A stretch of 64,000 bases of DNA, taken from positions 3,899 through 67,898 of the forward strand of contig JBGVFO010000044.1 of NCBI GenBank assembly GCA_045121195.1, given 5' to 3'. Both the position numbers and the translations under genes were made by a program. The stretch is from Eubacteriales bacterium (GTDB taxonomy: Bacteria; Bacillota; Clostridia; Oscillospirales; CAG-272). Position 1 is the first letter of the stretch, and every line of letters begins with the position of its first letter. Of the stretch, positions 1 to 22,260 are shown piece after piece. A model generated the notes under the pieces. It made no database searches, was not told the DNA's origin, and worked only from the letters and a program-made list of their open reading frames with translations.

Positions 1-2430
1 TTCGTCGTGCAGGGTGAAGCCGATGCCGACCGTGGGGGCAAACTGGATCTTCTCCTTCTTGAAGGAGGTGTTGAATTTTCTTCCCGCGCCATAAAGGAAG
101 CAGACGGGGAATTCCAATCCCTTGGAGTGGTGGATGGAGATCAGACGAACGGCGTCAAGATTGGATTCGCCGTCTTCATTTGTGATCTTGGTGCCTGCTT
201 CGATCACCTGGTTGATATAGCGGATAAATCCGTAAAGACCGCGGAATCCACCCGATTCAAAGCCCCGTGCATATTCATACAGACGAAGCAGATTGCTCTC
301 GCGGGCGTCCTGCATCGCAAGGACGGCAAAATCACGGTACAGCTCCCGAAGAAGACGGTCTACGGGAAGGGCGCGCGCCCGTTCCCTCCAATAGGAAAGG
401 GAGTCGAGAAAGGCACAGCATTTTGCGGCAAGCCCGTCCTTGTTCTCGGCGTATGCCGTGAGTGCGTCAAAGAGGGATACCGTATCCTCCGTGCCGTGAC
501 GGAGCGTGACAAGATCGTCTAGGGTGAAGCCGTAGAAGGGAGAGCAGAGTGCGCCCGTCAGAGGAATGTCGCGCTGGGGGTTGTCGATGGTGGAAAGCAG
601 GGAAAGAAGAAGCAGAACGTCCGGATTTTCAAAGAAGTTTCTTTCCTCGGAGCTGCAGGCGGGAATTCCCTCGCGAAGAAGGGTATCCATAAGATCCGCC
701 ATAGGGCGCTTGCTTCTCATAAGGATAGCAATATCAGCAGGGCGGATAGGGGAGCCATCCGCCTTTGTCATGGTGAGAAGCCTTTTGATCTCATTTACGA
801 TGTAGCGTGCTTCATCGTCTTTCCCGGCGGCAACCTCGTTTTTCTCTTCCTCCTCTTGCGGCGGCTGTGCTACCGCAACCACAACCTTGGGGGATCGATA
901 GCCTTCATGGGGGATCGCCTTGGAAAAGATCAGATCGTCCTTCTTGGAATATTCAATGCTTTCCCCGCAATTTTTGAAAAGATAGGAGGAAACCAGGTTG
1001 GAGAAGCGGATAATGCTTTCGTCACAACGGAAATTGTTCGACATAAAGATGGAGCAGGCATCGGCGTCTTCCGTTCCGAGAAGGGGCATTTTTCGCTTGT
1101 AGGAGGCAAAGATCGTGGGCTCCGCGCCGCGGAAGCTGTAGATGCTTTGCTTGATGTCGCCGACCATAAAGCGGTTGGTAGGCTTGGCGATGGTGCTGAA
1201 GATGAGATCCTGCACCTCGTCGGTGTCCTGATACTCGTCGATGTAGATCTCGTCAAAGCGCTCGCGAAGATCCAGCGCCAAGGGGGTTGCGTTGCCGTCC
1301 TTGTCGATGATCAGCTCCATTACGAAGCGGCGAATGTCCGAGAACACGCAAATGCCACGCTGGAGCTTTTCCCGCGCCAGCCTTTGGTCGAAGGCGGAAA
1401 GAAAGCGGTGTGCTACGTGACAAACGTCCGCCGTTGCCTCCATATGAGAGGCGATCTCCTCGGGCGTATAGTCGAAAAATTCAGCCTTCATGGTACGAAG
1501 CAGCTTGTGGGCGTCGGTTCGCAGATCCTTGAGGCGAACGGTATACTCGTCGCAGTCGCTCACCTTTTTCAGAGCTACCGCCTTGTAAGCGAGGAGGTAT
1601 TCTCTTGCCTCGGCGTAGCGGTTTTCCTTTACCAGCTGAAGCGCCGTTTCCGCGGTGACGCGGTCGTGACGGAAGGAGGGGAGATATTTTTCGGAGAGCA
1701 GGGGATCGTTTTCAAAATAGTCCTCCGCCGTTTGCATCGTATTCCGAATATATGAAAGGGTGGCGCAGATCTCCTCCTGTGCCGCTTTTCCGTAAGGCGT
1801 TTCAAAGAAATCGCGGGCAACGGAGTCGCGGAGCTGTCTTTCGCAGGCGGTGAGCATATTCACGCCGTCGCGGAAGGATAGAAGGGTTTCATAGATGGAG
1901 ATGAAAATATCCGCCACGCGATCGGTGCTTCGGATATCGGCAAAGTGGTCGACAAAATCCTCAAACGCGGGATCGGCGGTATAGAATTCGTCTATGGTAT
2001 CCTCCATAACCGAACGGTAAAGGAGCGCCATTTCCGACGTTTCCGCAATGCGGAGATTTCCGGGAAGCCCCAGCTTTTGGAAATTGCCCTTCAGAATATC
2101 GTAGTAAAAGGAGTCAATGGTACAGATGGTGGCGCTTCCCAGAAGCATGATCTGAGAGGCGAGATGACGGTTGGTGGGATCCTTTGCCAGCGCGTTTGCC
2201 AGCGCCTTGGAGATCTTGGTTTTGAGATCGGAGGCGGCAGCTCTCGTAAAGGTGACCACCAGAAGACGGGAAAGATCGGCGGGATCGTTTTCGCGGGTAA
2301 GGCTTTGGATAATGCGCTCGGTCAGCGTCGCGGTCTTACCGGAGCCGGCGGCGGCACTGACAAGAAGCGTCTTGCCTCGCGTGTTGATCGCGGAGAGCTG
2401 GGCGTCTGTCCAGGTATGTGTATTTGCCAT
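1..2430 (-). CDS. addA: ATP-dependent helicase/nuclease subunit A (AddA), N-terminal about 810 codons; C-terminus lies beyond the window start
   Basis: Reverse-strand ATG at 2430 follows AGGAGAAG. Translation MANTHTWTDAQLSAINTRGKTLLVSAAAGSGKTATLTERII has a UvrD-type Walker A. The frame stays open to position 1, so it is absent from the ORF track (no stop in window). It starts 18 nt downstream of addB. Confidence 0.9.
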   Translation of the reverse strand, partial: MANTHTWTDAQLSAINTRGKTLLVSAAAGSGKTATLTERIIQSLTRENDPADLSRLLVVTFTRAAASDLKTKISKALANALAKDPTNRHLASQIMLLGSATICTIDSFYYDILKGNFQKLGLPGNLRIAETSEMALLYRSVMEDTIDEFYTADPAFEDFVDHFADIRSTDRVADIFISIYETLLSFRDGVNMLTACERQLRDSVARDFFETPYGKAAQEEICATLSYIRNTMQTAEDYFENDPLLSEKYLPSFRHDRVTAETALQLVKENRYAEAREYLLAYKAVALKKVSDCDEYTVRLKDLRTDAHKLLRTMKAEFFDYTPEEIASHMEATADVCHVAHRFLSAFDQRLAREKLQRGICVFSDIRRFVMELIIDKDGNATPLALDLRERFDEIYIDEYQDTDEVQDLIFSTIAKPTNRFMVGDIKQSIYSFRGAEPTIFASYKRKMPLLGTEDADACSIFMSNNFRCDESIIRFSNLVSSYLFKNCGESIEYSKKDDLIFSKAIPHEGYRSPKVVVAVAQPPQEEEEKNEVAAGKDDEARYIVNEIKRLLTMTKADGSPIRPADIAILMRSKRPMADLMDTLLREGIPACSSEERNFFENPDVLLLLSLLSTIDNPQRDIPLTGALCSPFYGFTLDDLVTLRHGTEDTVSLFDALTAYAENKDGLAAKCCAFLDSLSYWRERARALPVDRLLRELYRDFAVLAMQDARESNLLRLYEYARGFESGGFRGLYGFIRYINQVIEAGTKITNEDGESNLDAVRLISIHHSKGLEFPVCFLYGAGRKFNTSFKKEKIQFAPTVGIGFTLHDE

Positions 2431-2448
2431 AGTCACTTCTCCTTTCTC

Positions 2449-5400
2449 TTAAAACTCTTGTACGGATCCGTTCGTCGCATCCGCGCGGCAGATCATTCGC
2501 ATTTTACAGTAGGTGCAGGGCGCGTCCTCAAGAGAGGGATCGCAGGTAAGGGCGCTTCCCGATTTCATTTCCAGGGCAATATTTCGGATGGTCTCGTGGA
2601 GCTCCTCCTCAAGACTTGTCAGTCCCTGCTCGGTGATCAGCGCGTTTCCCGAGACCCCGTCGTCCTTGACGGTAATGCCAGCCAAAAGCTTTTTGTCGTG
2701 GCTTCTGCTGACGGCGTCAAGCACCTCGTCGCGATCCAAAAGGATTCCCGAGCGCTTCATCTCGGCGCCCGCAAGACGGAGGACGTCCTGCGCTTCCGTT
2801 TTGCGATCCAGCTTCAGGGTGGAAAAGGCGGTGGACATATACAGCGCACCCGCGGGGGCGAGGGTCGCGTCGGGCGCGACCTTCAGCTTTTCCCGAAGCG
2901 TGGGGGAGGTATTGCCGCAAACGGCAAACAGATACAAAAGCAACTGAGTATTCAGTCCCTTTTTGATGTCCTTGAGAGAGAACTGCTTGCTTCCCGTTTT
3001 GTAATCGACGACCTTGACGTAAACGCGATCGTCGGTGCGGAATACGTCAATTCGGTCCACGACGCCGTAGAGGCAGACGCGGCTACCGTCTTCCAGCTCA
3101 ATGGTGGGAGGCTCGATGCCGCCCCGACCGATCCTCTCCTCAAAGAGGGCAGGGACGAAGTCGCTGTCCTTGAATTCGCGGTAAAGATCCAGCGCGATGG
3201 CGACGGCAAGTCGGGAAAGGCGGGCGAAAAGATGCGCAAGACGGGCGCCGAGGGCGGTCTTGCCGTGGTTGATCTCGGCAATATATCGCTCGGTCTCCCG
3301 AATGACCAGCGTGCGGATCTCCTCAAAGGTAACGTCGGCGCGAAGACCGTTTTCATCGGTCACCGCCTTCATAAACACCTCAAGAATGCGGTGGATCAAG
3401 GAGCCGGAGTCGGAAAAACGGAAGCCTGCCTGTCCGTTCTCCATCAGCTTCAGGACATAATTGCAATAATAGGAAAACTGGCAGGATACGTATTTATCGA
3501 TACGGGACTGCGTAAGACTTATGTTGTCCCCAAAGATCTGCTTTGCGGTGTCCTTTGTTACGGAGCAGGAGCGGTTGCTTACGGGAAGACGGCTTCGCTC
3601 CAGCAGAGTCGCGTAGCGCGGATTTTCGGAAAGAACGGCGATGAGAGACTCATACAGATCGGTGTTCCTCAAGGAGGGAAGCGCTTCAAAGGCAAGCTCG
3701 GGACACATCAGCCGATGGGCGGCGTTCGTGTTGCCGTATTCCTCTACCGCCACGTGGGGAAGAAGCTCACAGATTCGCCGAACAGCAAGGGAGGGGTAGC
3801 AAGCCTTTCCCGAGGCATCGGTATCGTGATACATCACGACCATCTTTTCCGAGGGCAGGGTCATAGCCCGATAGCAGTAGAGGAGCTCCTCCGTGGCACT
3901 GTCCCTCTTGTCGCCGGACAGGGAGATGCCAAGATCGGAGAGTGCCTTTCGGTCGTTGTCGGAGAAGAAGCCGCGATCCGAGGTGCGGGCAGGAAATTCT
4001 CCGTCGCATACGCCAAGAAGGATGGCGCAACGGATGCCGCCTGCGCGAAGCATGGAGGCAGAGCCGATCACCACCTCGTCGGCGGCGGTGGGAATGGAGC
4101 CGATCTCGGTGTTGTTCAGTACCAGACGGAGGGCGGTCGCAAATTCCTCAAGGGACATTTTCTCGTCGCCGACGGTGGAGGAGATTTTGGCGAGAACGTC
4201 GATTACGGAACGGAAGGTAGCGGCGGTTTCCGCAGCCTCTTTCTTATCGCCTCTCTGCATAGCGCGAAGGGAAAATTCCTTCATGCGCTCGGCGACGTTC
4301 ATAGCTTCAAGGAATCGGCGGAGTGCTTCGCAAAGCTCGCGTACCGTTTCGGCGGCACCCAGATGCAAAAACAGCTCCAGCAGGGGGGCGGTCACTTCAT
4401 TTTTTACTCGATTTGCCGTTTCCAGCATTTCTTTACCGCGCTCGGACATAGGGGCGGTATAGCCCTCGGGATTCATGACCCAAAGGTCCTCAAAAAATTT
4501 CGCGCCGTTTATGTTCCAGATGCTGACGTAATTTTCGAAAACGTCTGCTTCTCTGGGCGAAATATAAGGAATTCCCGTTTTTACGTACGCCATTACGTCG
4601 TTCATTCTCCAATTTCGCACCTTGATATTGATTGCCGCAAGGAGCATGGCGACCAGAGGCTTTGTGGGAAGGTCGGTCTTTTCCGAGAAGAAGAAGGGGA
4701 TCTCCGCTTTTTCGAAGGCAGAGTCAATAATACCGCGATAGGTATCTGCGTTGCGTGCGATGACGGCGATCTCGCGGCGCCGATAGCCTTGGCGGAGAAG
4801 AGAAAGGACCGTGTTGGCGGCGGCTTCCGCTTCCTCATACGGCGTCGCGCACCGAAGGATCGAAACCGCACCTTGCTCCGACTCGGGAATTTCGGGAAGC
4901 GTTTTTGCCGTTGTCTCAAATTGCCAAAGGGCTTGTCCGATACGGCAAAGCTCGGGCGAAGAAAAGCGGTGGAAGGTATCCAGCAGGATAAGCTCCGTGT
5001 CCTTGCCCGCCTCGTTCATCAAACGCTTTGCGGTTTCCTTGATGCTGGAGAGGGCGATGGCGTCGGAATGGGGGGAATCAATGCCAAGCGTTACGGTTAC
5101 GTTGTCAGCCTGGGCAAACAGTCTGCAAAGGATACGGTATTCCTGCGCCGTAAAGCTGGTAAAGGAGTCTATGTAAATATTGTATCCGTTAAAATAGCGG
5201 TGCTTTTCGAGAAGATCGGCAAGCTTTCCAAGGTCGTCGGCGTTGTCGTCGAAGGCGTTGCTGACCATGCCCTCGTAGGCGGCATAGATCAAGGAAAGAT
5301 CATCCAGCTTTGCGCGCAGGGCACTACCGTCGGGAAGCTTGTTCACGGCGTTTGAGAGCGCTACGGGGCTTACGTTGTATGCCTTGAATTCGTGTATTTG

Positions 5401-8889: not shown

Positions 8890-9579
8890 ATGTATCACAT
8901 TCTGGTGGTGGACGACGAGGTCAGGATCCGAAGTATGATCCGAAAGTATGCCGAGTTCGAGGGGCATACCGTTACCGAAGCAGGCGACGGCATGCAGGCG
9001 GTGCTTTTGGTAAGAGAAGGCGGATACGACATCGTAATTATGGATATTATGATGCCGGAGCTTGACGGCTTTTCCGCGTGCCGCGAGATCAGAAAGCGGT
9101 CGCAAATTCCTATCATTATGCTTTCCGCGCGCGGCGAGGAGTATGATCGGATCAACGGCTTTGAGGTCGGCATTGACGATTACGTGGTCAAGCCCTTCTC
9201 GCCCAAGGAGCTGATGCTTCGGGTCGAGGCGGTCATGAAGCGGACCAGACGGGGAACCGAAAAGACGGGGCAGGTTAACGAGATCGTTGAGCTTGACGGA
9301 GGCGGACTTCGCGCTGACCTTACGGCACGTATCGTCTGGGTGGACGGGGAACGGGTAGAAATGTCCCCCAAGGAGTACGATCTATTTTTCTACCTGCTGA
9401 CCAATAAAAATATTGCGTTGTCAAGAGAAAAGCTGCTCTCCGAGGTATGGGGATATGACTTTTACGGCGACGCGAGGACGCTTGACACACACATCAAGCT
9501 TTTGAGAAAAAGCCTTGGCAGATATGCGGATCGCATCGTGACGCTTCGCGGAATCGGCTATCGGTTTGAGGGAAGATAA
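8890..9579 (+). CDS. OmpR/PhoB-family response regulator
   Basis: 229 aa. Receiver domain (ILVVDDE ... DIVIMDIMMPELDG ... KPF) plus winged-helix C-terminus (LRGIGYRF). Confidence 0.9.
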   Translation: MYHILVVDDEVRIRSMIRKYAEFEGHTVTEAGDGMQAVLLVREGGYDIVIMDIMMPELDGFSACREIRKRSQIPIIMLSARGEEYDRINGFEVGIDDYVVKPFSPKELMLRVEAVMKRTRRGTEKTGQVNEIVELDGGGLRADLTARIVWVDGERVEMSPKEYDLFFYLLTNKNIALSREKLLSEVWGYDFYGDARTLDTHIKLLRKSLGRYADRIVTLRGIGYRFEGR

Positions 9580-9600
9580 CGAAAGCAAAGGAGGCGCGAT

Positions 9601-11115
9601 ATGCGGAAGACCGATCAAGGAAACAACAAAAAAACGATCAGCATCGGTTGGAAGCTGTTTGCCTTTTTACTTGCCTTCGTTCTTTTGATGCTGGGGGGGA
9701 TCTGGCTCTTTCAGATCCGCCTTTTGGACCATTTTTATCAAAAAACAAAATATAAGGAGCTTGAAACCATCTCAAGCATCCTTTCCGACTACGTGGGTAC
9801 CGATACGCTGGACGATGCCGTCTATTCCTGCGCGGTGGACTACTCCACCTGTATTCGTATTTTTCGGCAGAGCAATAACATTGCCGTAGAGGTGGCAAGC
9901 GCCGACGTGGCGAAGGATTGCCTCATACACAATATCTCGCAGACACGATTGAACGAATACTACCGAAACGCCAAGGAAAACGGCAACGTATATGCGGCAA
10001 CGCAGGAAATGACGCCCCAGATCGGCACCTTCTGGAGCGGGAGCGATCCCAAGACCACCCATTTGTTTGATCTGATCCGTGCGGACAGTAAAACGGTGGG
10101 AATGGTGTATAACGTTATCGTTACGGATGCTGTCGGTACCGAGTATATGATCATGCTCAATTCCGAGCTGACGCCGGTGGATGCGACGGTCAACACCCTC
10201 AAGACGCAGTTTGTTTGGATCGCGTGGGTCCTTGCCGCGGCGGCGCTCCTTCTTGCCGCTTTGATCTCGAGAAACATCTCCAAGCCCATCGAAAAAATGA
10301 ACCGTTCCGCGAAAAAGCTTGCCGAGGGCCGGTACGACGTGGAATTTGTCGGTCGGGGCTATAGGGAGGCAAGAGAGCTGGCGGATAGCTTGAACTTTGC
10401 GGCGGCGGAGCTTTCCCGTACCGATTCGCTTCAGCGGGAGCTGATCGCCAACGTATCTCACGATCTCCGTACGCCTCTGACGATGATCAAGGGCTATACC
10501 GAGGTCATGCGTGATATTCCGGGAGAAAACACACCGGAAAATCTGAACGTGATCGCGGAGGAGGCAAACCACCTAGGGGAGCTCGTCAACGATATGCTGG
10601 ATCTTTCCCGTATCCGTTCGGGCGTCCGCACACCGCAGATGACGGAATTTTGCCTGACCGACGCGGTTCGCGAGGTGATGAAGCGATACGATGCGCTGAT
10701 GAAAAATGACGGGTATACCATTGATTTTTCCGCGGATTGCGATGCGTGGATTACAGCGGATCGAATGATGATCCTTCAGGTGGTTTATAATCTCATCAAT
10801 AACGCGATCCACTACATTGGCGAGGATAAAACGGTGACGGTGATCCAGAGGACCCACGGGGATACCGTCAGACTTTCGGTCATCGATCACGGCGCAGGAA
10901 TCGCCCCCGATCAGTTGGATAGGATCTGGGACCGTTATTATAAGGTGGATCGCGTGCATAAGCGCGCCGCCGTGGGAACGGGACTCGGTCTTTCTATCGT
11001 AAAGGGGATTCTTGAATGTCATCGGGCAACCTACGGGGTGGAATCGGCGCAGGGTGTGGGAAGCTGCTTCTGGTTTTCCTTACCCGCTGAAAAAAGAGAG
11101 GAGGACACGGAATGA
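9601..11115 (+). CDS. sensor histidine kinase (two TM helices, HAMP, HisKA, HATPase)
   Basis: 504 aa. H-box ANVSHDLRTPLT, N-box LINNAIHY, G-boxes DHGAGI and GTGLGLSIV. Confidence 0.9.
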   Translation: MRKTDQGNNKKTISIGWKLFAFLLAFVLLMLGGIWLFQIRLLDHFYQKTKYKELETISSILSDYVGTDTLDDAVYSCAVDYSTCIRIFRQSNNIAVEVASADVAKDCLIHNISQTRLNEYYRNAKENGNVYAATQEMTPQIGTFWSGSDPKTTHLFDLIRADSKTVGMVYNVIVTDAVGTEYMIMLNSELTPVDATVNTLKTQFVWIAWVLAAAALLLAALISRNISKPIEKMNRSAKKLAEGRYDVEFVGRGYREARELADSLNFAAAELSRTDSLQRELIANVSHDLRTPLTMIKGYTEVMRDIPGENTPENLNVIAEEANHLGELVNDMLDLSRIRSGVRTPQMTEFCLTDAVREVMKRYDALMKNDGYTIDFSADCDAWITADRMMILQVVYNLINNAIHYIGEDKTVTVIQRTHGDTVRLSVIDHGAGIAPDQLDRIWDRYYKVDRVHKRAAVGTGLGLSIVKGILECHRATYGVESAQGVGSCFWFSLPAEKREEDTE

Positions 11116-12816: not shown

Positions 12817-13536
12817 ATGAAATTTTCCCTTTGTATTCCCATGTATAATGAATCGTCCATCATTGCCGAAACCGCAAAGACCCTTTCGGCTTTTATGGAC
12901 GAGCATTTTGACGAGTATGAAATTGTGTTCTCGGATGACGGAAGCACCGACGGCTCCGCGGATCTCGTCCGTGACCTTGCGCTTTCCCATATTCGCGTGA
13001 TCGGCTATTCGCAGAACCGGGGCAAGGGAAGCGCCGTGCGCGAGGCTATGCTTGCCGCAGAGGGTGACGTGGTGATGTTTACCGATTCCGACCTTGCCTA
13101 CGGCACGGACGTGATCCTTGAGGTTGCCCGTCGGATGGCAGAGGAGGACGCCCCCGCCGTGCTCGTTGGTTCCCGCAATCTGTCCGAGGACGGTTACGAG
13201 GGCTATACGCCTGTGCGAAAGTTTGCTTCCAAGGCGTACATCAAGCTGCTTTGCGCCGTTGGCGGTCTTCGGCTTTCCGACTCCCAGTGTGGCTGCAAGG
13301 CGTTTTCACGGAAGGCGGCCGACGCCATCTTTTCCCGCGCTGAGGTCAACGGCTTTGCTTTTGACTTTGAGACCATTTTGCTGGCGGAAAAAATGGGCTT
13401 TTCCATCGGAGAATTTCCCGTCAAGGTGATCAATCACCGCGCCTCCAAGGTGCATCTGATCTCGGATGCCGCCCGTATGCTGAAGGAGCTTGGCGCCATC
13501 AAAAAAAGGGTGAAAAGACTGGATCTTGAAGGTTGA
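12817..13536 (+). CDS. family 2 glycosyltransferase (polyprenyl-phosphate hexosyltransferase-like)
   Basis: 239 aa. IPMYNE ... DDGSTDGS ... FTDSDL (DXD) motifs. Confidence 0.8.
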   Translation: MKFSLCIPMYNESSIIAETAKTLSAFMDEHFDEYEIVFSDDGSTDGSADLVRDLALSHIRVIGYSQNRGKGSAVREAMLAAEGDVVMFTDSDLAYGTDVILEVARRMAEEDAPAVLVGSRNLSEDGYEGYTPVRKFASKAYIKLLCAVGGLRLSDSQCGCKAFSRKAADAIFSRAEVNGFAFDFETILLAEKMGFSIGEFPVKVINHRASKVHLISDAARMLKELGAIKKRVKRLDLEG

Positions 13537-13578
13537 TGTATAATTTCCGTTTTTTTTGAAAAAATATTCAGAATTCTA

Positions 13579-13607
13579 TTGACAAACCCACGAGAAAGTG
13601 CTAAAAT
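13579..13607 (+). promoter_or_regulatory. sigma-A-type promoter of the T-box operon
   Basis: TTGACA (13579-13584), 17-nt spacer, TAAAAT (13602-13607), preceded by a TGC extended -10. Confidence 0.6.
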
Positions 13608-13635
13608 ACGACCATAGTTTCATATTCAATTCAAA

Positions 13636-13904
13636 GGCTATGACCGAAGAGAAGTAAGTGAGAAGAACACGCATAGAGAGTTGTCGGTTGGTGTAAGACA
13701 ACGGTGCCTCTTGCCGAAATACATTTCGTGAGCCGCACACCCAAAGGAACCAACGGGAACCGAGTAGGCTGTGACGGGTGCGCCCGTGATCGCGCTGGGG
13801 TATTTTTGTACCCGATAAGGCCGTTTGCCGTGAGGCGGCGGTGAATTGAGGTGGTAACACGGATTTTATTCGTCCTCTGTAACATTTTACAGGGGCGTTT
13901 TTTA
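13636..13904 (+). promoter_or_regulatory. T-box riboswitch leader, probable Tyr (UAC) specifier
   Basis: - K-turn halves AUGA 13640-43 and UGAGC 13729-33.
- Lower helix CGAAG 13645-49 / UUUCG 13724-28.
- S-turn AGUA 13653-56.
- AG bay AGAGAG 13675-80.
- Distal helix UUGUC/GACAA with loop GGUUGGUGUAA.
- Specifier loop GAAA-UAC-A (UAC = 13720-22).
- T-box sequence AAUUGAGGUGGUAACACGG 13845-62.
- Antiterminator helices GAGG/CCUC and ACGG/UCGU around a UGGUAAC bulge.
- Competing terminator 13874-13895 plus a U-run. Confidence 0.85.
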
Positions 13905-13930
13905 TAGCCCCGGAAAGGGAGGTACTCGAT

Positions 13931-15472
13931 ATGGTACTAAAAGTTGGTTTGTTGGTCGTTTTCTTTAGTGTGATGGTAGCCGTTGGTCTGTATTGTCGCA
14001 AAAACTCTACCGATGTCAAGGGTTTTGTTCTCGGCGGACGCGCGGTTGGACCGTGGCTTACGGCGTTTGCATACGGTACCTCGTATTTCTCCGCGGTTAT
14101 TTTTGTCGGATACGCGGGACAGTTCGGCTGGAAATTCGGTATTGCCTCTACCTGGATCGGTATCGGTAACGCAGTGCTTGGCTCTTTGCTTGCCTGGATC
14201 GTTCTCGGTCGCCGCACCCGCTTGATGAGTCAGCATCTGGAAACCTCTACGATGCCCGAATTCTTTGGAAAACGATACGGAAGCCCGGCGCTGAAGATCG
14301 CGGCGTCCGTGTTGGTCTTTATCTTCCTGATTCCGTATACCGCGTCGCTGTATAACGGTCTTTCACGCCTTTTTGAAATGGCGTTTCCCGGTGTCAGCTA
14401 CAACGTGTGCGTCATCGTAATGGCGGTACTGACGGGAATTTACGTCATTGCGGGCGGTTATATGGCAACGGCGATCAATGACTTTATTCAGGGCGTGATT
14501 ATGCTTGTGGGTATCGTCTTGGTCATTGCCGCGGTTCTCAATACGCAGGGCGGATTTGTGGAAGCGCTGAACGGTCTTGCCAATGTGCAGGTAGGCGAAA
14601 ACGCTCCCGGCGCGTTCAACTCCTTCTTCGGTCCCGATCCCTTGAACCTGATGTTCGTTGTGGTTCTTACGTCCTTGGGAACTTGGGGTCTTCCTCAGAT
14701 GGTGCAGAAATTTTACGCGATCAAGAGCGAAAATGACATCCATAAGGGAACGGTGATCTCCACGCTTTTTGCCGTTGTGGTTGCCGGAGGATGCTACTTC
14801 CTCGGTGGATTTGGTCGACTGTTTGCCGATAAGCTGAACGTTTCCGGTGATATGCCGGCAGGCGGTTACGACTCGATTATTCCCGCTATGCTGGAAAATC
14901 TTCCTAATATCGTGATCGCGGTTGTTATCGTCCTTGTTCTTTCGGCGTCTATGTCAACGCTTTCCTCCTTGGTTCTTGCCTCCAGCTCCACGTTGACGCT
15001 GGATATGATCAAGGGGCACGTGGTCAAAAAGATGACCGAGAAGAAGCAGGTGCTGATTATGCGCGCACTGATCGTTGTGTTTATCGTGATTTCCGCGGTG
15101 ATCGCGATCAACAAGGATAAGCTCGGCTATATTGCCGATATGATGGGAATTTCCTGGGGCGCCCTTGCCGGCGCGTTCCTCGCGCCCTTCCTTTACGGCT
15201 TGTACTCCAAGAAGGTCACCAAGGCGGCGTGCTGGGCGAGCTTTGTGTTCGGTGCCGGTCTTATGGTTGCCAATATGCTGTTCCGCGGCTCGTTCCCCGC
15301 GATCCTACAGTCTCCCATTAACAGCGGCGTGATCGCTATGCTGGGCGGACTTGTGATCGTTCCCATTGTCAGTCTGTTGACACCGAAGCAGGAAAAACGG
15401 GCTGTCGATGAAATGTTTGAATGTTACCAGAAAGAGGTAATGGTAACGTCCAAGGAATCCTTGGGCAAATAA
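13931..15472 (+). CDS. sodium:solute symporter (SSS) family transporter
   Basis: 513 aa, about 13 hydrophobic segments. N-terminal region resembles PutP/PanF/ActP-type SSS carriers. First gene after the T-box leader; RBS GGAAAGGGAGG. Confidence 0.85.
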   Translation: MVLKVGLLVVFFSVMVAVGLYCRKNSTDVKGFVLGGRAVGPWLTAFAYGTSYFSAVIFVGYAGQFGWKFGIASTWIGIGNAVLGSLLAWIVLGRRTRLMSQHLETSTMPEFFGKRYGSPALKIAASVLVFIFLIPYTASLYNGLSRLFEMAFPGVSYNVCVIVMAVLTGIYVIAGGYMATAINDFIQGVIMLVGIVLVIAAVLNTQGGFVEALNGLANVQVGENAPGAFNSFFGPDPLNLMFVVVLTSLGTWGLPQMVQKFYAIKSENDIHKGTVISTLFAVVVAGGCYFLGGFGRLFADKLNVSGDMPAGGYDSIIPAMLENLPNIVIAVVIVLVLSASMSTLSSLVLASSSTLTLDMIKGHVVKKMTEKKQVLIMRALIVVFIVISAVIAINKDKLGYIADMMGISWGALAGAFLAPFLYGLYSKKVTKAACWASFVFGAGLMVANMLFRGSFPAILQSPINSGVIAMLGGLVIVPIVSLLTPKQEKRAVDEMFECYQKEVMVTSKESLGK

Positions 15473-15496: not shown

Positions 15497-17131
15497 ATGC
15501 CGATTACCGAAATTTTACAAAAGAATGCGGATTTCTATCCCAACGATGTGAGCCTTGTGGAGATCAATCCTCAGCTTGAGAAGCAGACTCGTATGACGTG
15601 GAGAGAGTACTCTCTGATCGAGTCGAATCCCAACGAGGCGTACCGTCGCGAAATTACCTGGGGCGAGTTTAACAAGAAGGCGAATCGCTTTGCCAATCTT
15701 CTGCTGACGCGAGGCGTAAAGAAGGGCGATAAGGTTGCTATTCTTCTGATGAACTGCATTGAGTGGCTTCCGATCTATTTTGGCGTTCTCAAGGCGGGCG
15801 CTATGGCGGTGCCCTTGAACTACCGCTATGCCTCCGATGAGATCAAATACTGCCTTGAGCTTTCCGATTCCGATTTTATCGTTTTCGGTCCCGAGTTCAC
15901 GGGACGTGTAGAGCAGATCTGTTCTCGCGTGAAGCGCATCAAAACCTGGTTGTATGTGGGTGAGGACTGTCCCACCTTTGCGGAGAGCTACGACAGTCTT
16001 GTTTCCTACTGTTCCTCCAAGAGTCCTGCTATCAAGCTGACGGACGACGACGACGCGGCAATCTACTTCTCCTCGGGAACAACGGGCTTCCCCAAGGCGA
16101 TCATCCATAAGCACAGGAGTCTTGTTCACGCGGCAATGGTAGAGCAGAATCATCATTCCCAGACCAAGGACGACGTGTTCCTTTGCATTCCGCCTCTGTA
16201 TCATACGGGTGCGAAGATGCACTGGTTCGGCAGCTTCCTCGTTGGCGGTAAGGCGGTTCTTCTCAAGGGCATCAAGCCCGAGTGGATCCTTAAGGTCGCC
16301 TCGGAGGAAAAATGCTCCATCGTATGGCTGCTTGTGCCGTGGGCGCAGGATCTTCTGGATGCTGTGGAGCGCGGGGAGCTGAAGCTGGAGGATTACGATC
16401 TTTCACAGTGGCGCTTGATGCATATCGGCGCACAGCCCGTTCCCCCCAGCCTGATCCGTCGTTGGAAGCAGTACTTCCCGAATCACGCCTACGACACCAA
16501 CTACGGTCTTTCCGAGTCCATAGGCCCCGGTTGCGTACACCTTGGCGTGGAAAACGAACATAAGGTTGGCGCCATCGGTAAGGCAGGCTTTGGCTGGGAG
16601 ACCAAAATCGTTGACGAGCAGGGAAACACCGTTGCGCGCGGCGAGGTTGGCGAGCTTGCCGTCAAGGGCCCCGGCGTTATGACGGCGTACTACAAGGATG
16701 AAAAGGCGACTGCCGAGGTGCTTCGCGACGGCTGGCTCTTTACGGGCGATATGGCGACGGAGGACGAGGACGGCTTTATCTTCCTCGTTGACAGAAAGAA
16801 GGACGTTATTATTTCGGGCGGTGAGAACCTGTATCCCGTTCAGATCGAAGATTTCCTGCGCCGCAACGATAAGATCAGCGACGTAGCGGTGATCGGTCTT
16901 CCCGACGCGCGCCTTGGCGAGATCGCCACGGCGATCATTCAGGTCAAGGAGGGAATGACCCTGACCGAGGAGGAGGTCGAGGACTTCTGTCTTGACCTTC
17001 CCAGATACAAGCGTCCTCGCAAGATCATTTTCGCAGACGTTCCCAGAAATCCTACGGGAAAGATCGAGAAGCCCAAGCTTCGCGAGATCTACTGCGGCGG
17101 AAGTCTTGTAGCACAGCAGAACGAAATTTAA
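15497..17131 (+). CDS. AMP-forming acyl-CoA synthetase/ligase (FadD/ANL superfamily)
   Basis: 544 aa. YFSSGTTGFPKAI AMP-binding motif, TGD, and a C-terminal PRNPTGKI motif. Confidence 0.85.
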   Translation: MPITEILQKNADFYPNDVSLVEINPQLEKQTRMTWREYSLIESNPNEAYRREITWGEFNKKANRFANLLLTRGVKKGDKVAILLMNCIEWLPIYFGVLKAGAMAVPLNYRYASDEIKYCLELSDSDFIVFGPEFTGRVEQICSRVKRIKTWLYVGEDCPTFAESYDSLVSYCSSKSPAIKLTDDDDAAIYFSSGTTGFPKAIIHKHRSLVHAAMVEQNHHSQTKDDVFLCIPPLYHTGAKMHWFGSFLVGGKAVLLKGIKPEWILKVASEEKCSIVWLLVPWAQDLLDAVERGELKLEDYDLSQWRLMHIGAQPVPPSLIRRWKQYFPNHAYDTNYGLSESIGPGCVHLGVENEHKVGAIGKAGFGWETKIVDEQGNTVARGEVGELAVKGPGVMTAYYKDEKATAEVLRDGWLFTGDMATEDEDGFIFLVDRKKDVIISGGENLYPVQIEDFLRRNDKISDVAVIGLPDARLGEIATAIIQVKEGMTLTEEEVEDFCLDLPRYKRPRKIIFADVPRNPTGKIEKPKLREIYCGGSLVAQQNEI

Positions 17132-17150: not shown

Positions 17151-18884
17151 ATGAAGAAATTGATGCTTGGTAATGCGGCGGTGGCGCAGGGAGCATATGA
17201 AGCAGGCGTAAGCGTTGTCGCCTCCTATCCCGGCACCCCCAGCACCGAGATTACCGAAAATATCGTAAAATACGACGAGATCTACGCCGAGTGGTCGCCT
17301 AACGAAAAGGTGGCGGCAGAGGTTGCCATCGGTGCCGCCATCGGCGGTGCGAGAAGCATGTCCTGTATGAAGCACGTAGGTCTTAACGTTATGGCTGACC
17401 CCGTATTTACCGTCAGTTATACCGGCGTCAACGGCGGTCTGGTTTTCTGCGTAGCGGACGACCCCGGAATGCACTCCTCCCAGAACGAGCAGGATTCCCG
17501 ACACTACGCGAAGGCGTCCAAGATCCCTATGCTTGAGCCTGCGGATTCCTCGGAATGTAAGGAGTTCACAAAGCTTGCCTATGACCTCTCCGAGCAGTTT
17601 GACACGCCTATGTTCCTCCGTCTTTCCACCAGAGTTTCTCACTCGCAGAGCCTTGTGGAGATCGGCGAGAGAGCAGACGTGGCGCTTAAGCCTTACGAAA
17701 AAAATATCGGAAAATACGTGATGATGCCCGCCAATGCGGTCAAGCGTCACGTTGAGGTAGAGAAGAGAACCGACGCCCTCCGCGCGTTTGCGGAAAACTG
17801 CGAGCTCAATACCGTTGAGGATAACGGCGCCAAGATCGGCGTGATCTCTGCGGGCATCTCCTATATGTACGCCAAGGAAGCCCTTGGCGACAAGGTGAAT
17901 TATCTGAAGCTCGGTATGGTATGGCCGCTTCCCGAAAAGCTGATCCGTGAGTTTGCCACAAAGGTAGAAAAGCTGTACGTCATCGAGGAGCTGGATCCCT
18001 TTATCGAGGAGCACTGCAAGGCGCTTGGTGTAGAGGTGATCGGCAAGGATGTGTTCACCCTTCTTGGTGAGTACACCCCCGCAATGATCGCAAAGGCGAT
18101 CCTTGGCGAGGAGCCTGCTCCCTTCGCGGCGGCAGAGGAGACGATCCCCAACCGTCCTCCCGTTCTTTGCGCGGGCTGTCCTCACCGCGGAACCTTCTAC
18201 GTTCTGAAAAAGCTGGGTCTTGTGGTAAGCGGCGACATCGGATGTTATACTCTCGGTGCCGTTGCTCCCTTGGCTTCGGTAGATACCACCATTTGTATGG
18301 GGGCCTCCGTCAGCGCCGCCCTCGGTATGGCAAAAGCAAGAGGCGCGGAATTCAACAAAAAGCTGGTTTCGGTCATTGGTGACTCCACCTTTATGCACTC
18401 GGGTATTACGGGTCTTGTAGACATCGTATATAACAAGGGCGCCAATACCGTTATTATTCTCGATAACTCCATTACGGGTATGACCGGCCACCAGGACAAT
18501 CCCACCACGGGAAGAACCATTCGTGGCGAGGCAACCAAGCAGGTCGATCTGATCGCCCTTTGCAAATCCATCGGTGTGGAGCACGTCGTGGTTGCCGATC
18601 CCTTCGACGTAAAGAACTTTGAGAAGGTGGTCAAGGAAGAGGTGGATCGCGACGAGCCCTCGGTTATTATCGCCCAGCGTCCCTGCGCTCTCCTCAAAAC
18701 CGTTAAATACACCGGTTACTGCGAGGTGACCGATAAGTGCCGTAATTGTAAGATGTGTATGAAGCTTGGTTGTCCCGCCATTACCGCGGACGAAAAGGGC
18801 GTACATATCGATCCCAATCAGTGCAACGGATGCGGACTTTGCGTAAACGTATGTCCCTTCGGTGCCATTGAAAAGAAAGCGTAA
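17151..18884 (+). CDS. iorA: indolepyruvate:ferredoxin oxidoreductase subunit alpha
   Basis: 577 aa. TPP-enzyme architecture with a C-terminal 2x[4Fe-4S] ferredoxin motif (CRNCKMCMKLGCP ... CNGCGLCVNVCP). Followed by iorB. Confidence 0.9.
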   Translation: MKKLMLGNAAVAQGAYEAGVSVVASYPGTPSTEITENIVKYDEIYAEWSPNEKVAAEVAIGAAIGGARSMSCMKHVGLNVMADPVFTVSYTGVNGGLVFCVADDPGMHSSQNEQDSRHYAKASKIPMLEPADSSECKEFTKLAYDLSEQFDTPMFLRLSTRVSHSQSLVEIGERADVALKPYEKNIGKYVMMPANAVKRHVEVEKRTDALRAFAENCELNTVEDNGAKIGVISAGISYMYAKEALGDKVNYLKLGMVWPLPEKLIREFATKVEKLYVIEELDPFIEEHCKALGVEVIGKDVFTLLGEYTPAMIAKAILGEEPAPFAAAEETIPNRPPVLCAGCPHRGTFYVLKKLGLVVSGDIGCYTLGAVAPLASVDTTICMGASVSAALGMAKARGAEFNKKLVSVIGDSTFMHSGITGLVDIVYNKGANTVIILDNSITGMTGHQDNPTTGRTIRGEATKQVDLIALCKSIGVEHVVVADPFDVKNFEKVVKEEVDRDEPSVIIAQRPCALLKTVKYTGYCEVTDKCRNCKMCMKLGCPAITADEKGVHIDPNQCNGCGLCVNVCPFGAIEKKA

Positions 18885-18897
18885 GGAGGGAAAGAGC

Positions 18898-19470
18898 ATG
18901 ACAGATACGAAAAAGATCATGATCGTCGGCGTTGGCGGACAGGGAACCCTCCTCGCCAGCCGCATTCTCGGAAACACCGTGATCGGTGAGGGATATGACG
19001 TAAAGGTATCCGAGGTTCACGGAATGAGCCAGCGCGGCGGAAGCGTCGTGACCTACGTGAAGTACGGTGAAAAGGTCTGGTCTCCCATCATCGACAAGGG
19101 GGAGGCGGATCTGATCCTCGCCTTCGAGATGCTGGAGGCGTACCGTGCGTTGCCCTATCTTAAGAAGGGCGGCAAGATGATCGCCAACACCCAGGAGATG
19201 TCGCCGATGCCCGTGATTACGGGTGCGGCAAAGTATCCCGAGAATATTGCCGAGAAGCTTTCTTCCGCGGCGGATGTGACATGGATAGATGCCCTCGCCC
19301 TTGCCCGCGAGGCAGGAAACACCAAGGCAGTCAACGTGGTTCTTATCGGTCTTATGGCAAAGAACACTGAGATCCCCTATGAAAAGTGGGTCGAGGCGGT
19401 AAAGAAGACGGTTCCCGAGAAGTTCCTTGAGGTCAATCTCAAGGCGTTTGATCTCGGTTACAATCACTGA
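18898..19470 (+). CDS. iorB: indolepyruvate:ferredoxin oxidoreductase subunit beta
   Basis: MTDTKKIMIVGVGGQGTLLASRILG is the gamma-type oxidoreductase fold. ATG 18898 follows AAGGAGGG; the track start at 18862 lies inside iorA. Confidence 0.85.
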   Translation: MTDTKKIMIVGVGGQGTLLASRILGNTVIGEGYDVKVSEVHGMSQRGGSVVTYVKYGEKVWSPIIDKGEADLILAFEMLEAYRALPYLKKGGKMIANTQEMSPMPVITGAAKYPENIAEKLSSAADVTWIDALALAREAGNTKAVNVVLIGLMAKNTEIPYEKWVEAVKKTVPEKFLEVNLKAFDLGYNH

Positions 19471-19500: not shown

Positions 19501-20811
19501 TTGGCATTCTATCAAAAAGAAATCGAATGTATGCCCCGTGAGGAGCTTCGCAAACTGCAAAGTGAGCGCCTCTGCTGGCAGGTAAACCGTATGTACGAGC
19601 GTGTTGAGCTGTTCCGCAAGCGTATGGATGAGCTTGGACTCAAGCCCTCGGATATCAAGGGTGTAGAGGACCTTCCCAAGCTTCCGTTCTCCTATAAGCA
19701 GGATCTGCGTGACTATTATCCTTACGGACTGTTCGCAGAGCCTATGAAGGACATCGTTCGTGTCCACGCTTCTTCGGGTACGACGGGAAAGAAGATCGTT
19801 GTCGGTTATACCAAGAAGGACCTTGAGGATTGGGCGGACGGTGTTGCCAGAATGCTGATCGCCATCGGCGAGGGAGCGGATTCCTTCGCGCAGGTCTCTT
19901 ACGGCTACGGTCTGTTTACCGGCGGTCTTGGCGCACACGGCGGCGCGGAGAAGATCGGTGCGACCGTGATTCCCACCTCTGCGGGCAATACCCAGATGCA
20001 GATCCAGACCATGATCGACTTTGGCTCAACGGTGCTGTTCTGTACCCCCTCTTACGCGCTTTACCTTGGCGAAACAGTTGAGGAAATGGGTGTGAAGGAT
20101 CAGCTTTCTCTTCGCGCGGGCGTGTTCGGTGCAGAGCCCTGGACCGAGGATATGCGCCGTGCCATTGAGGATAAGCTTGGCATCAAGGCATACGATATTT
20201 ACGGACTTTCCGAGATCATGGGTCCCGGTGTCAGCGGTGAGTGCGAGTACCAGTGCGGCATGCACGTTTGGGAGGATATGTTCATCCCCGAGATCATCGA
20301 TCCCGAAACCCTTGAAGTTCTTCCTTACGGAGAAAAGGGAGAGCTGGTATTCACTACCATTACCAAGGAGGGATTCCCCCTCATTCGCTACCGTACCCGT
20401 GATATCTGCTCTTTGAATGCCGAGCCCTGTAAGTGCGGCAGAACCCATATCCGTATGGCAAAGCCTACGGGACGAAGCGACGATATGCTGATCATTCGCG
20501 GCGTCAACGTCTTCCCGTCCCAGATCGAGGAGGTCCTCATCAAGTTCGGTGAGGCGTCAGGCATCACTCCCAACTATCAGATCATCGTTGACCGTGTCAA
20601 CAATAACGATACCTTTGACGTTATGGTAGAAATGAGCGAGCATCTGTTTGCCGATGACGTCAAATCCATCGAGAAGGTGGAAAAGACGCTGACCGAGCAG
20701 CTTCGCTCCACCCTTGGCATCGGCGCCAAGGTTCACCTCGTTAATCCCAAGTCGATCACGCGCAGCGAGGGAAAAGCAAAACGCGTTATCGATAAGCGTA
20801 AGCTTTCGTAA
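19501..20811 (+). CDS. paaK: phenylacetate-CoA ligase family protein (PaaK-like)
   Basis: 436 aa. N-terminus [18 protein letters not shown] and [14 protein letters not shown] are typical of PaaK-type ligases. TTG start; ATG 19531 is possible. Confidence 0.85.
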
Positions 20812-21225: not shown

Positions 21226-21231
21226 AATTTG

Positions 21232-21263
21232 CCCCGAGGCAACGCCTCGGGGCTTCTTTTTTT
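21232..21263. terminator. bidirectional intrinsic terminator between convergent operons
   Basis: CCCCGAGGC-aac-GCCTCGGGG (9 bp) followed by a T-run. A-rich on the other side. Confidence 0.7.
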
Positions 21264-22260
21264 ATGCCATCGTTTCCAGCATTTTGAGGGTGACCTCATA
21301 CTGACAGGGCTCGCCTGCGACGAAACGGTCAAATTCTTTCGCCATATATTTCGCCATACGGCAGGTCTCGGGACCAAGGCTTCCCGCGATATGAGGAGTC
21401 AGGAAGCAGTTGGGGAGAGAATAGAAGGGGTGTCCCTCGACGGGGGGCTCGGGAAAGGTAACGTCAAGCACTGCCGTAAGATCGGGGCGTTCCCGGAGGA
21501 TGCGTACGAGATCGTCCTCGACCACCTGCGCGCCACGACCGGTGTTTATGAAGGTAGCGCGGGGAAGCATCCGCTTGAAGCAATCGTAATTCAACATTCC
21601 CTGGGTCGCGGCATTGTTGGCAAGATGGTTGGAAACCACCGAGCAGGTGGAGAACAGCTCTTCAAGAGAGCAAGGGAATACGCCCAGCTCCTCGGCGCGC
21701 TCCTGTGACAGGAAGGGATCAAAGACCATGACCTTGAGATCAAAATTTCGGAGATGCTTCGCCACAAGAGAGCCGATCATTCCCGCACCGATGAGTCCCA
21801 CTCTTTGGCGGAAGTTGCCGGGAAAGGCGTCACGGATCGCTTGCGCCTCCGCTACGTTTCCACCCGACATAAGGGCGCTGTGCGTGTAGAAGCCCTTACC
21901 GGCAAGAAGAATTTGCGAGAGAGCGTACTCGGCAACGGGAACGGCGTTTGCCGCCCAGGCGCTGAATACGTGAACGCCGCAGTTCAGAAAGGGACGGGCA
22001 AAGCTTTGCACGGTACCCGCGGCGTAAAAGACGGCGCGGAGCTTCGGGAAGCAGCGCGTGATCTCCTCCTCGGAGAATCGGGGCATCCCCCAGGTGGAGA
22101 AAATAAATTCGGTGTCGGCAAAGCGTTCAGGCTCCGTCAGTACGTCCTCCTTGGAGAAGATGGTTTCACAGAGATCGGCAAAGCCCTTCAGATATGCCCT
22201 TGTATCTTCGTCGTATACGGTGGGAATGTGCTTGGTGCTGCCCAAAAAGATCGATTTCAT
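21262..22260 (-). CDS. D-isomer-specific 2-hydroxyacid dehydrogenase family protein
   Basis: 332 aa. NAD-binding VGLIGAGMIGSLVAKHL, and RGAQV ... TPHIAG catalytic region. Confidence 0.8.
   Translation of the reverse strand: MKSIFLGSTKHIPTVYDEDTRAYLKGFADLCETIFSKEDVLTEPERFADTEFIFSTWGMPRFSEEEITRCFPKLRAVFYAAGTVQSFARPFLNCGVHVFSAWAANAVPVAEYALSQILLAGKGFYTHSALMSGGNVAEAQAIRDAFPGNFRQRVGLIGAGMIGSLVAKHLRNFDLKVMVFDPFLSQERAEELGVFPCSLEELFSTCSVVSNHLANNAATQGMLNYDCFKRMLPRATFINTGRGAQVVEDDLVRILRERPDLTAVLDVTFPEPPVEGHPFYSLPNCFLTPHIAGSLGPETCRMAKYMAKEFDRFVAGEPCQYEVTLKMLETMA

Follow-up and report, generated by a model that had tools for sequence, protein, structure and literature searches.

What would a bacterium gain from placing a transporter, two acyl-coenzyme A (CoA) ligases and an oxidoreductase under a riboswitch that senses uncharged tRNA-Tyr? 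The question is raised by a stretch of 64,000 nt from an Eubacteriales bacterium (assembly GCA_045121195.1, contig JBGVFO010000044.1, positions 3,899 to 67,898), which we call the window and to which all positions given without a locus name refer. Judging from its sequence, the leader under study here is very probably a genuine and complete T-box riboswitch of the ordinary, transcription-attenuating type, specific for tRNA-Tyr (anticodon GUA), and it lies in the 5' leader of an operon of seven kilobases. The RNA itself is textbook, and the interest lies in its regulon of six genes, encoding a sodium:solute symporter, a FadD-type acyl-CoA ligase, the two subunits of indolepyruvate:ferredoxin oxidoreductase (IOR), a PaaK-like ligase and a protein with a pair of ACT domains, which was not discussed in the preliminary description of the same sequence.

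The leader and its specifier

The Rfam scan covered the whole window with the curated gathering score as cut-off, and RF00230 (T-box) was the sole family that reached the threshold. The match runs from 13631 to 13880 on the plus strand, exceeds the gathering score of 93 with 107.4 bits (E 9.1e-23) and takes in model positions 1-219 of 219. The preliminary description had proposed this comparison as a check on its claim that all canonical parts of a T-box are present in the correct order, and the full-length match bears the claim out, together with the promoter, the terminator and antiterminator and the covariation described below; the positions it gave for the CGAAG/UUUCG helix, the UAC, the A that follows, the UGGU and the U-run of the terminator are exact to the base. 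The strong promoter-like site upstream matches 11 of 12 positions and has the TG, and its layout (TTGAC...TG.TAnAAT) recurs in the orthologous leaders.

Relatives of the locus were gathered in two sets, the members of which carry handles of the form L072. The first comprises 80 loci from species-representative genomes, fetched by way of the downstream symporter; most of them belong to uncultured Clostridia of gut and rumen, those nearest to the window being metagenome-assembled genomes of Acutalibacteraceae with 81-83% protein identity. The second consists of metagenome loci fetched with the IorA of L072 (Lawsonibacter) as anchor. A profile built from the window leader was used to find homologous leaders in the fetched loci, and 31 leaders were aligned, 30 of which precede the symporter or a ligase-symporter pair, the remaining one being the phenylalanine-type (UUC) leader of L072. 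Covariation was counted on a hand-drawn T-box structure laid over this alignment, with pairing partners slid by 1-3 columns and 500 shuffles as controls.

Across the 31 leaders 92.1% of the cells are paired, against 38-49% with the slid partners, compensatory changes are found in 34 of 51 pairs, and none of the 500 shuffles matches any of the observed measures. The lower helix of stem I is 98.7% paired with compensatory changes in four of its five pairs, the distal helix 90% paired with four such pairs, and the antiterminator helices reach 97-100%. In the IIB pseudoknot the three central pairs are paired in every sequence, and both sides have changed in 8, 12 and 14 sequences. The GGUGGUA motif, part of the conserved T-box sequence AAUUGAGGUGGUAACACGG at 13844-13862, is invariant, and the columns of the AG bulge (AGAGA) and of GGUUGGUG (13686-93) in the distal loop are invariant or nearly so. 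An extra hairpin that the Rfam model treats as an insertion is 94.7% paired, with four compensatory pairs in this lineage of leaders, and it also appears in the predicted fold. When stem I is folded alone, the minimum-energy structure differs from the T-box fold (z 0.2); the structure given here is the one supported by the covariance model and the covariation.

In the alignment to the covariance model UAC falls on the columns that read "uuc" in the consensus GAAauuca; next come the column "a" (A 13723) and the closing helix. The same columns hold UAC in L016 and L035, UGG in the leader of L141, whose downstream gene is TrpB-like, and AAC in the leader of L077, where the bulge is UGGC, a combination expected for asparagine. 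With these tryptophan and asparagine leaders as positive controls, the columns can be taken as those of the specifier. All 30 leaders preceding the symporter or the ligase-symporter pair have UAC there; U13720 and C13722 are invariant in the 31 leaders and A13721 is kept in 30, the exception being the phenylalanine leader. Three further metagenome leaders (L139, L142 and L144; 126 bits each) read GAA-UAC-C. The tyrosine specifier given in the preliminary description is thus upheld, and the orthologue alignment that it had named as a check points to the same triplet.

It had also mentioned AUA (isoleucine) as a formal alternative frame, for which the window alone gives a reason: GAAAUACA exceeds the glyQS template by one base. 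This frame is ruled out by the orthologues that lack the extra A and by the covarying helix, which begins one base after the C of UAC. No fewer than 29 of the 30 tyrosine-type leaders read GAA-UAC-A/C, AUA would fall two bases away from the helix, and the model columns put UAC where the control leaders carry UGG and AAC. The phenylalanine leaders keep GAAA-UUC-A, so the GAAA spacer is a normal variant, and the genes downstream fall into the metabolism of aromatic acids and not into a branched-chain pathway.

A terminator-like hairpin was detected at 13874-13895 in the scan of flanking signals. The fold of the terminator is at -13.1 kcal/mol (z -5.6; none of 200 shuffles equals it) and that of the antiterminator at -6.5 kcal/mol, with 13871-13877 common to both, and a terminator stronger than the antiterminator fits a switch that needs tRNA to keep the antiterminator open. 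It is established for T-boxes that the UGGN of the bulge pairs with the 3' end of the tRNA, and bacterial tRNA-Tyr carries A73. The UGGU of the window leader implies a tRNA with A73, which would be consistent with tyrosine; the window and 141 of the related loci were scanned for a tRNA-Tyr gene that would show this base, and none was detected.

We infer tRNA binding and charge-dependent switching from what is established for T-boxes in general. Transcription would start at the promoter (13579-13607), and stem I would offer UAC (13720-13722) to the GUA anticodon of tRNA-Tyr, with a platform of the AG bulge (13675-79) and the distal loop (13686-96) stacking on the elbow of the tRNA. The free 3' ACCA of an uncharged tRNA would pair with UGGU (13852-13855) and stabilise the weak antiterminator, letting RNA polymerase enter the operon, whereas a charged tRNA could not pair, and the stronger terminator (13871-13897 and the U-run) would then form and stop transcription.

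The operon and its relatives

The six genes lie on the plus strand and are separated by 12-30 nt (24 nt between symporter and ligase), and no terminator comparable to the strong one at 21231-21253 was found in the gaps between them. With gaps this tight and no internal terminator, the T-box should gate the whole operon (Table 1). Protein families were judged by Pfam matches and by the equivalog cut-offs of NCBIfam. The symporter scores 205.6 bits against the PutP equivalog TIGR02121, far below the cut-off of 515.5, and its membership goes no further than PF00474; its closest solved structures are sugar transporters, and the structures related to ligase and symporter give no clue to the substrate. 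For IorB the start is probably the ATG at 18898; the longest open reading frame (ORF) begins at a GTG at 18862, and the family alignments start at residues 14-18 of this long frame. By family, the downstream genes relate to aromatic 2-oxoacid and arylacetate metabolism, and their association with the leader is conserved.

Among the 80 loci a homologous leader stands directly before the symporter in 28, and 16 of these continue into ligase or IOR genes; in L035 the UAC leader lies upstream of a ligase-symporter pair. The gene order symporter, ligase, IorA, IorB, PaaK and ACT recurs in many related loci. In 34 of the 80 the ligase adjoins the symporter, on either side, in members of several taxonomic orders and two phyla, including Lachnospiraceae and Treponema, which argues that both proteins act on the same carboxylic acid. 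The metagenome loci anchored on IorA show the same module in many arrangements, and in L139, L142 and L144 the UAC leader is followed by ligase, symporter, IorA, IorB, PaaK, ACT and an aminotransferase-like gene.

The leaders of L072 and L107 are homologous to that of the window (nhmmer E-values 1e-37 and 1e-40) and score 81.6 and 82.4 bits in Rfam, short of the gathering score; they carry GAAA-UUC-A, with the phenylalanine codon, and precede a gene of the Trp-repressor family, IorA and IorB, and in L072 also PaaK. A divergent operon in L072 holds a FadD-type ligase, a class I/II aminotransferase, a pyruvate kinase and a symporter. All T-boxes detected before the module in these loci have an aromatic specifier, tyrosine or phenylalanine, the codons of which are one base apart.

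Table 1. Positions of the features of leader and operon in the window, and of a regulator gene in related loci
Feature	Position	Strand	Basis or remark
Sigma-70-type promoter	13579-13607	+	-35 TTGACA 13579-13584, 17-nt spacer, TG extension 13599-13600, -10 TAAAAT 13602-13607
T-box leader, complete	13631-13904	+	Rfam match 13631-13880 plus terminator and U-run; covariation
Stem I	13637-13733	+	Base pairs 13637-38/13732-33; K-turn strands UAUGAC 13639-13644 and UGA 13729-13731; Rfam structure line, sequence
Lower helix closing the specifier loop	CGAAG 13645-13649 / UUUCG 13724-13728	+	G-U pair on top
Specifier loop, 3' side	13716-13723	+	GAAA-UAC-A; 5' side AGAAGUA 13650-13656
Specifier codon UAC (tyrosine)	13720-13722	+	Covariance-model columns, conservation
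AG bulge AGAGA, distal helix, distal loop GGUUGGUGUAA	13675-13679, 13680-85/13697-702, 13686-13696	+	tRNA-elbow platform
Stem II (CACACCC/GGCUGUG) with internal GAGUAGG motif	13736-13773	+	Rfam alignment; 4 pairs compensatory
Stem IIA hairpin and IIB pseudoknot	13774-13796	+	Hairpin 13774-78/13783-87, loop 13779-82 with 13793-96; covariation
Extra hairpin between stem IIA/B and stem III	13798-13813	+	Outside the Rfam consensus (unmodelled insertion)
Stem III	13820-13842	+	8 of 9 pairs compensatory; predicted fold
T-box sequence and antiterminator	13844-13877	+	Helices 13848-51/13874-77 and 13859-63/13869-73; bulge UGGUAAC 13852-13858
UGGU, predicted partner of tRNA 3' end ACCA	13852-13855	+	Invariant in 31 leaders; U13855 reads discriminator A73 by the pairing rule
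Intrinsic terminator	13871-13903	+	Stem 13871-13897, U-run 13898-13903; kept in orthologues
Sodium:solute symporter family protein, 513 aa, first regulated gene	13931-15472	+	PF00474 191 bits; ribosome-binding site AAGGGAGG 13915-13922
AMP-forming acyl-CoA ligase, 544 aa, FadD / 4-coumarate-ligase-like	15497-17131	+	AMP-binding Pfam domains; below-cut-off fatty-acid-CoA-ligase matches
IorA, IOR alpha subunit	17151-18884	+	TIGR03336 749.1 bits, above 650.9
IorB	18898-19470	+	NF005325 285.9 bits, above cut-off of 230
PaaK-like (phenylacetate-CoA-ligase-like) AMP-forming ligase	19501-20811	+	PF14535; TIGR02155 542 bits, below equivalog cut-off of 646.3
ACT-domain-pair protein, 133 aa	20824-21225	+	PF19571 96.7 bits
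Bidirectional intrinsic terminator closing the operon	21231-21253	both	10-bp stem, 9 G-C pairs, T-runs on both strands
PF01371 gene (Trp-repressor family)	L072:3564-3878	-	Also before IorA in L081-84, 86, 87, 89, 93, 95, 97, 98
PF01371 gene before IorA, remaining loci	L104, 105, 107, 116, 121, 126, 128, 129

The gene of the Trp-repressor family (PF01371) encodes about 100 amino acids and stands directly before IorA in roughly 20 of the 80 gut-metagenome loci. In L072 and L107 it is itself placed behind the phenylalanine T-box. It may provide this module with another means of control by aromatic amino acids, through a protein instead of an RNA. Another accompanying gene is of the Amidohydro_2 family (PF04909), inserted between symporter and ligase in four loci (L020:10595-11410, L021:10651-11442, L026:1603-2394 and L028:10630-11421), and weaker relatives of it occur near the cluster in L097, L101, L104, L130, L135 and L141.

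Several neighbours of the module, in the window and elsewhere, were considered and left out of it. A D-2-hydroxyacid dehydrogenase gene (21262-22260, minus strand) converges on the operon and uses the same bidirectional terminator, and we considered it as a possible aryl-lactate dehydrogenase but rejected it as a member of the module, as it is not conserved beside the module elsewhere. Upstream, 8890-11115 holds a response-regulator and histidine-kinase pair followed by genes for a small membrane protein, a methyltransferase-like protein and a family 2 glycosyltransferase; the last two were rejected as well, not being kept beside the operon in related loci. The T-box of L141 (1311-1564, plus strand; 72.6 bits, below the gathering score), with the specifier GAA-UGG-U, precedes a TrpB-like ORF of 459 aa (1685-3064) beside the ligase/IOR cluster, and a second, weaker T-box-like match of 59.7 bits lies on the opposite strand (491-781, minus). 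The asparagine-type T-box of L077 (4513-4751, minus strand; 107.6 bits, AAC specifier, UGGC bulge) is divergent from the symporter gene. L016 has a second T-box on the minus strand (94.4 bits), probably with AUC, which precedes an ORF of 806 aa containing an AMP-binding-like region; this T-box and an adjoining tmRNA gene with the tag ANKNLAYAA lie at 12838-13079 and 13448-13797, both on the minus strand. The AUC and AAC T-boxes of L016 and L077 were set aside as unrelated units.

The purpose of the operon

Tyrosine starvation would switch on the operon, and its two ligases are of the AMP-forming type, and on these grounds we think that it most likely runs in the biosynthetic direction, making tyrosine from salvaged arylacetate through reductive carboxylation; a degradative role is implausible for genes that are induced when tyrosine runs short. 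The symporter would take up an aromatic acid, for instance 4-hydroxyphenylacetate, which would be activated to its CoA thioester; the IOR would reductively carboxylate this to 4-hydroxyphenylpyruvate, and transamination of the latter would yield tyrosine. That phenylalanine is made from phenylacetate in the rumen has been known for long (cited in PMC7356843). Our reading, to which we give a probability of about 0.55, is that the tyrosine T-box marks the genes of the long-known route by which anaerobes of rumen and gut carboxylate arylacetates, with a symporter that imports 4-hydroxyphenylacetate or a related precursor, a FadD-type ligase, an IOR working in reverse and an aminotransferase.

An IOR beside AMP-forming arylacetate-CoA ligases is likely to be biosynthetic, as has been argued for the Bacteroides IOR (Jiang et al. 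2026, PMC13285125). Catabolic clusters use a phosphotransacylase (Pta) and a kinase, or ADP-forming ligases (PMC13285125), and the catabolic aminotransferase-iorAB-butK operon of Clostridioides difficile depends on SigL and is not controlled by a T-box (PMC7438776). We dropped the argument that PaaK cannot use 4-hydroxyphenylacetate, and that a second ligase would be needed for this reason, as the CoA thioester of 4-hydroxyphenylacetate (HPA-CoA) is reported to be made with a PaaK enzyme (PMC13285125).

Some observations weigh against this reading, and several of them would suit the main alternative, in which the same tyrosine T-box controls a plain sodium/tyrosine importer and the ligases and the IOR are co-transcribed for some other reason, not making tyrosine from an imported acid. 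In 12 loci, among them those of the cultured Brotomerdimonas butyrica and Lentihominibacter hominis, the symporter is the single gene driven by the UAC leader, which fits an importer of tyrosine at least as well; by family the symporter most resembles PutP and PanF, carriers of an amino acid and a vitamin, and not the acetate/phenylacetate permease branch; and T-box-regulated transporters have generally been assigned the cognate amino acid (PMC2494555). For the first ligase, the nearest solved structures belong to generic enzymes (FadD13, feruloyl-CoA and 4-coumarate-CoA ligases). Still, we find a plain importer less likely, as the frequent neighbourhood of ligase and symporter argues for a common carboxylic acid, the short gap without a terminator between them means that the T-box drives the ligases and the IOR too, and the phenylalanine-specific homologous leaders precede an IorA module without a transporter. 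There are also points against the reading that concern the switch itself: the codon is never UAU in the relatives and has no synonymous covariation, its position being fixed by the covarying helix and the comparison with phenylalanine, tryptophan and asparagine leaders; the A73 of the host tRNA-Tyr is an assumption from general knowledge of bacterial tRNA-Tyr; and tRNA binding and readthrough are predictions from what T-boxes in general do.

No T-box precedes the operon in its closest relatives, those of L002 and L003, nor in L039. A plain TTGACA promoter and a short leader are found in the first two and a gene for an AraC-type regulator just upstream of the operon in the third, and to judge from such loci the module has evidently changed its mode of control several times. 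Loci of this kind could make one suspect that the window leader is a decayed relic without function, but this is very improbable for an RNA that matches the family in full length above the gathering score, in which every conserved motif is intact and all helices are maintained by compensatory changes across the alignment, and which has an intact terminator and a weaker antiterminator, as expected of a working switch. In a further alternative the operon would be catabolic and its link to the T-box incidental, and imported tyrosine or arylpyruvate would be oxidised by the IOR to arylacetyl-CoA for energy. The IOR is reversible and serves the production of phenylacetate in some gut bacteria (as cited in PMC13285125), and the operon of C. 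difficile is an example of catabolic iorAB genes (PMC7438776). We nevertheless consider a catabolic operon improbable: uncharged tRNA-Tyr would turn on a pathway that destroys the precursors of tyrosine just at a time of shortage, AMP-forming ligases favour the synthesis of the thioester where catabolic clusters carry Pta and kinase or ADP-forming enzymes (PMC13285125), and in L072 the cluster is accompanied by an aminotransferase and the gene of the TrpR family.

Known counterparts and significance

The window leader belongs to the standard class of T-boxes and is most like the tyrS leader of Bacillus subtilis, the founding tyrosine T-box (Grundy and Henkin). Both have UAC, a UGGU bulge, stems I-III, the IIA/B pseudoknot and competing hairpins, and work by transcription attenuation. 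The window leader differs in having the extra covarying hairpin at 13798-13813 and a GAAA rather than a GAA spacing at the S-turn, and in what it controls, which is a symporter-ligase-IOR operon and not a tRNA synthetase. The preliminary description had likened the layout to the crystallised stem I of glyQS, and the likeness is real, with K-turn, lower helix, AGUA...GAA specifier loop, codon, single base and helix in the same order. The glyQS leaders are, however, without stem II and the IIA/B pseudoknot, both of which are present and covary in the window leader, and the window leader has an additional A after GAA, ahead of the codon.

The transporter families under T-box control that were tabulated in 2008 are ABC, APC, DAACS, LIVCS, MFS, NHAC and NSS (Wels et al. 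2008, PMC2494555). As in that catalogue, we use the specifier to predict the substrate of the transporter downstream, but the sodium:solute symporter family (PF00474) is absent from its table, and the window symporter, in contrast to the transporters listed there, sits in an operon with CoA ligases and an IOR. The nearest counterparts of the operon itself are the IOR clusters of Bacteroides and methanogens (PMC13285125), in which IorAB adjoins a PaaK-type AMP-forming ligase and for which reductive carboxylation of arylacetyl-CoA to arylpyruvate has been proposed for the synthesis of aromatic amino acids; the window adds to this a FadD-type ligase, the symporter, the ACT protein and starvation control by a T-box. 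The CD2382-iorAB-butK operon of C. difficile (PMC7438776) likewise has IorA and IorB in an aromatic amino-acid operon of Clostridia, but that operon is catabolic, with an aminotransferase, a kinase and a SigL-dependent promoter, and has neither a T-box nor AMP-forming ligases. No report of T-box control of an indolepyruvate/iorA cluster was found in the full-text literature, the coverage of which is incomplete.

The direction of the IOR in gut bacteria is debated, the enzyme being tied also to the production of phenylacetate, a metabolite of relevance to the host. As a T-box switches its genes on only under shortage of the cognate amino acid, the tyrosine T-box before a symporter, two AMP-forming ligases and an IOR is regulatory evidence that a cluster widespread in gut and rumen makes, rather than degrades, aromatic amino acids. 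The control by tyrosine starvation, with control by phenylalanine in relatives, speaks for a biosynthetic role of the symporter-ligase-IOR-PaaK module. From the specifier a substrate can also be predicted for an uncharacterised branch within the sodium:solute symporter family and for the acyl-CoA ligase beside it, and if our reading is right, leaders that differ at the middle base of the specifier (UAC or UUC) would assign the module to phenylalanine in other species.

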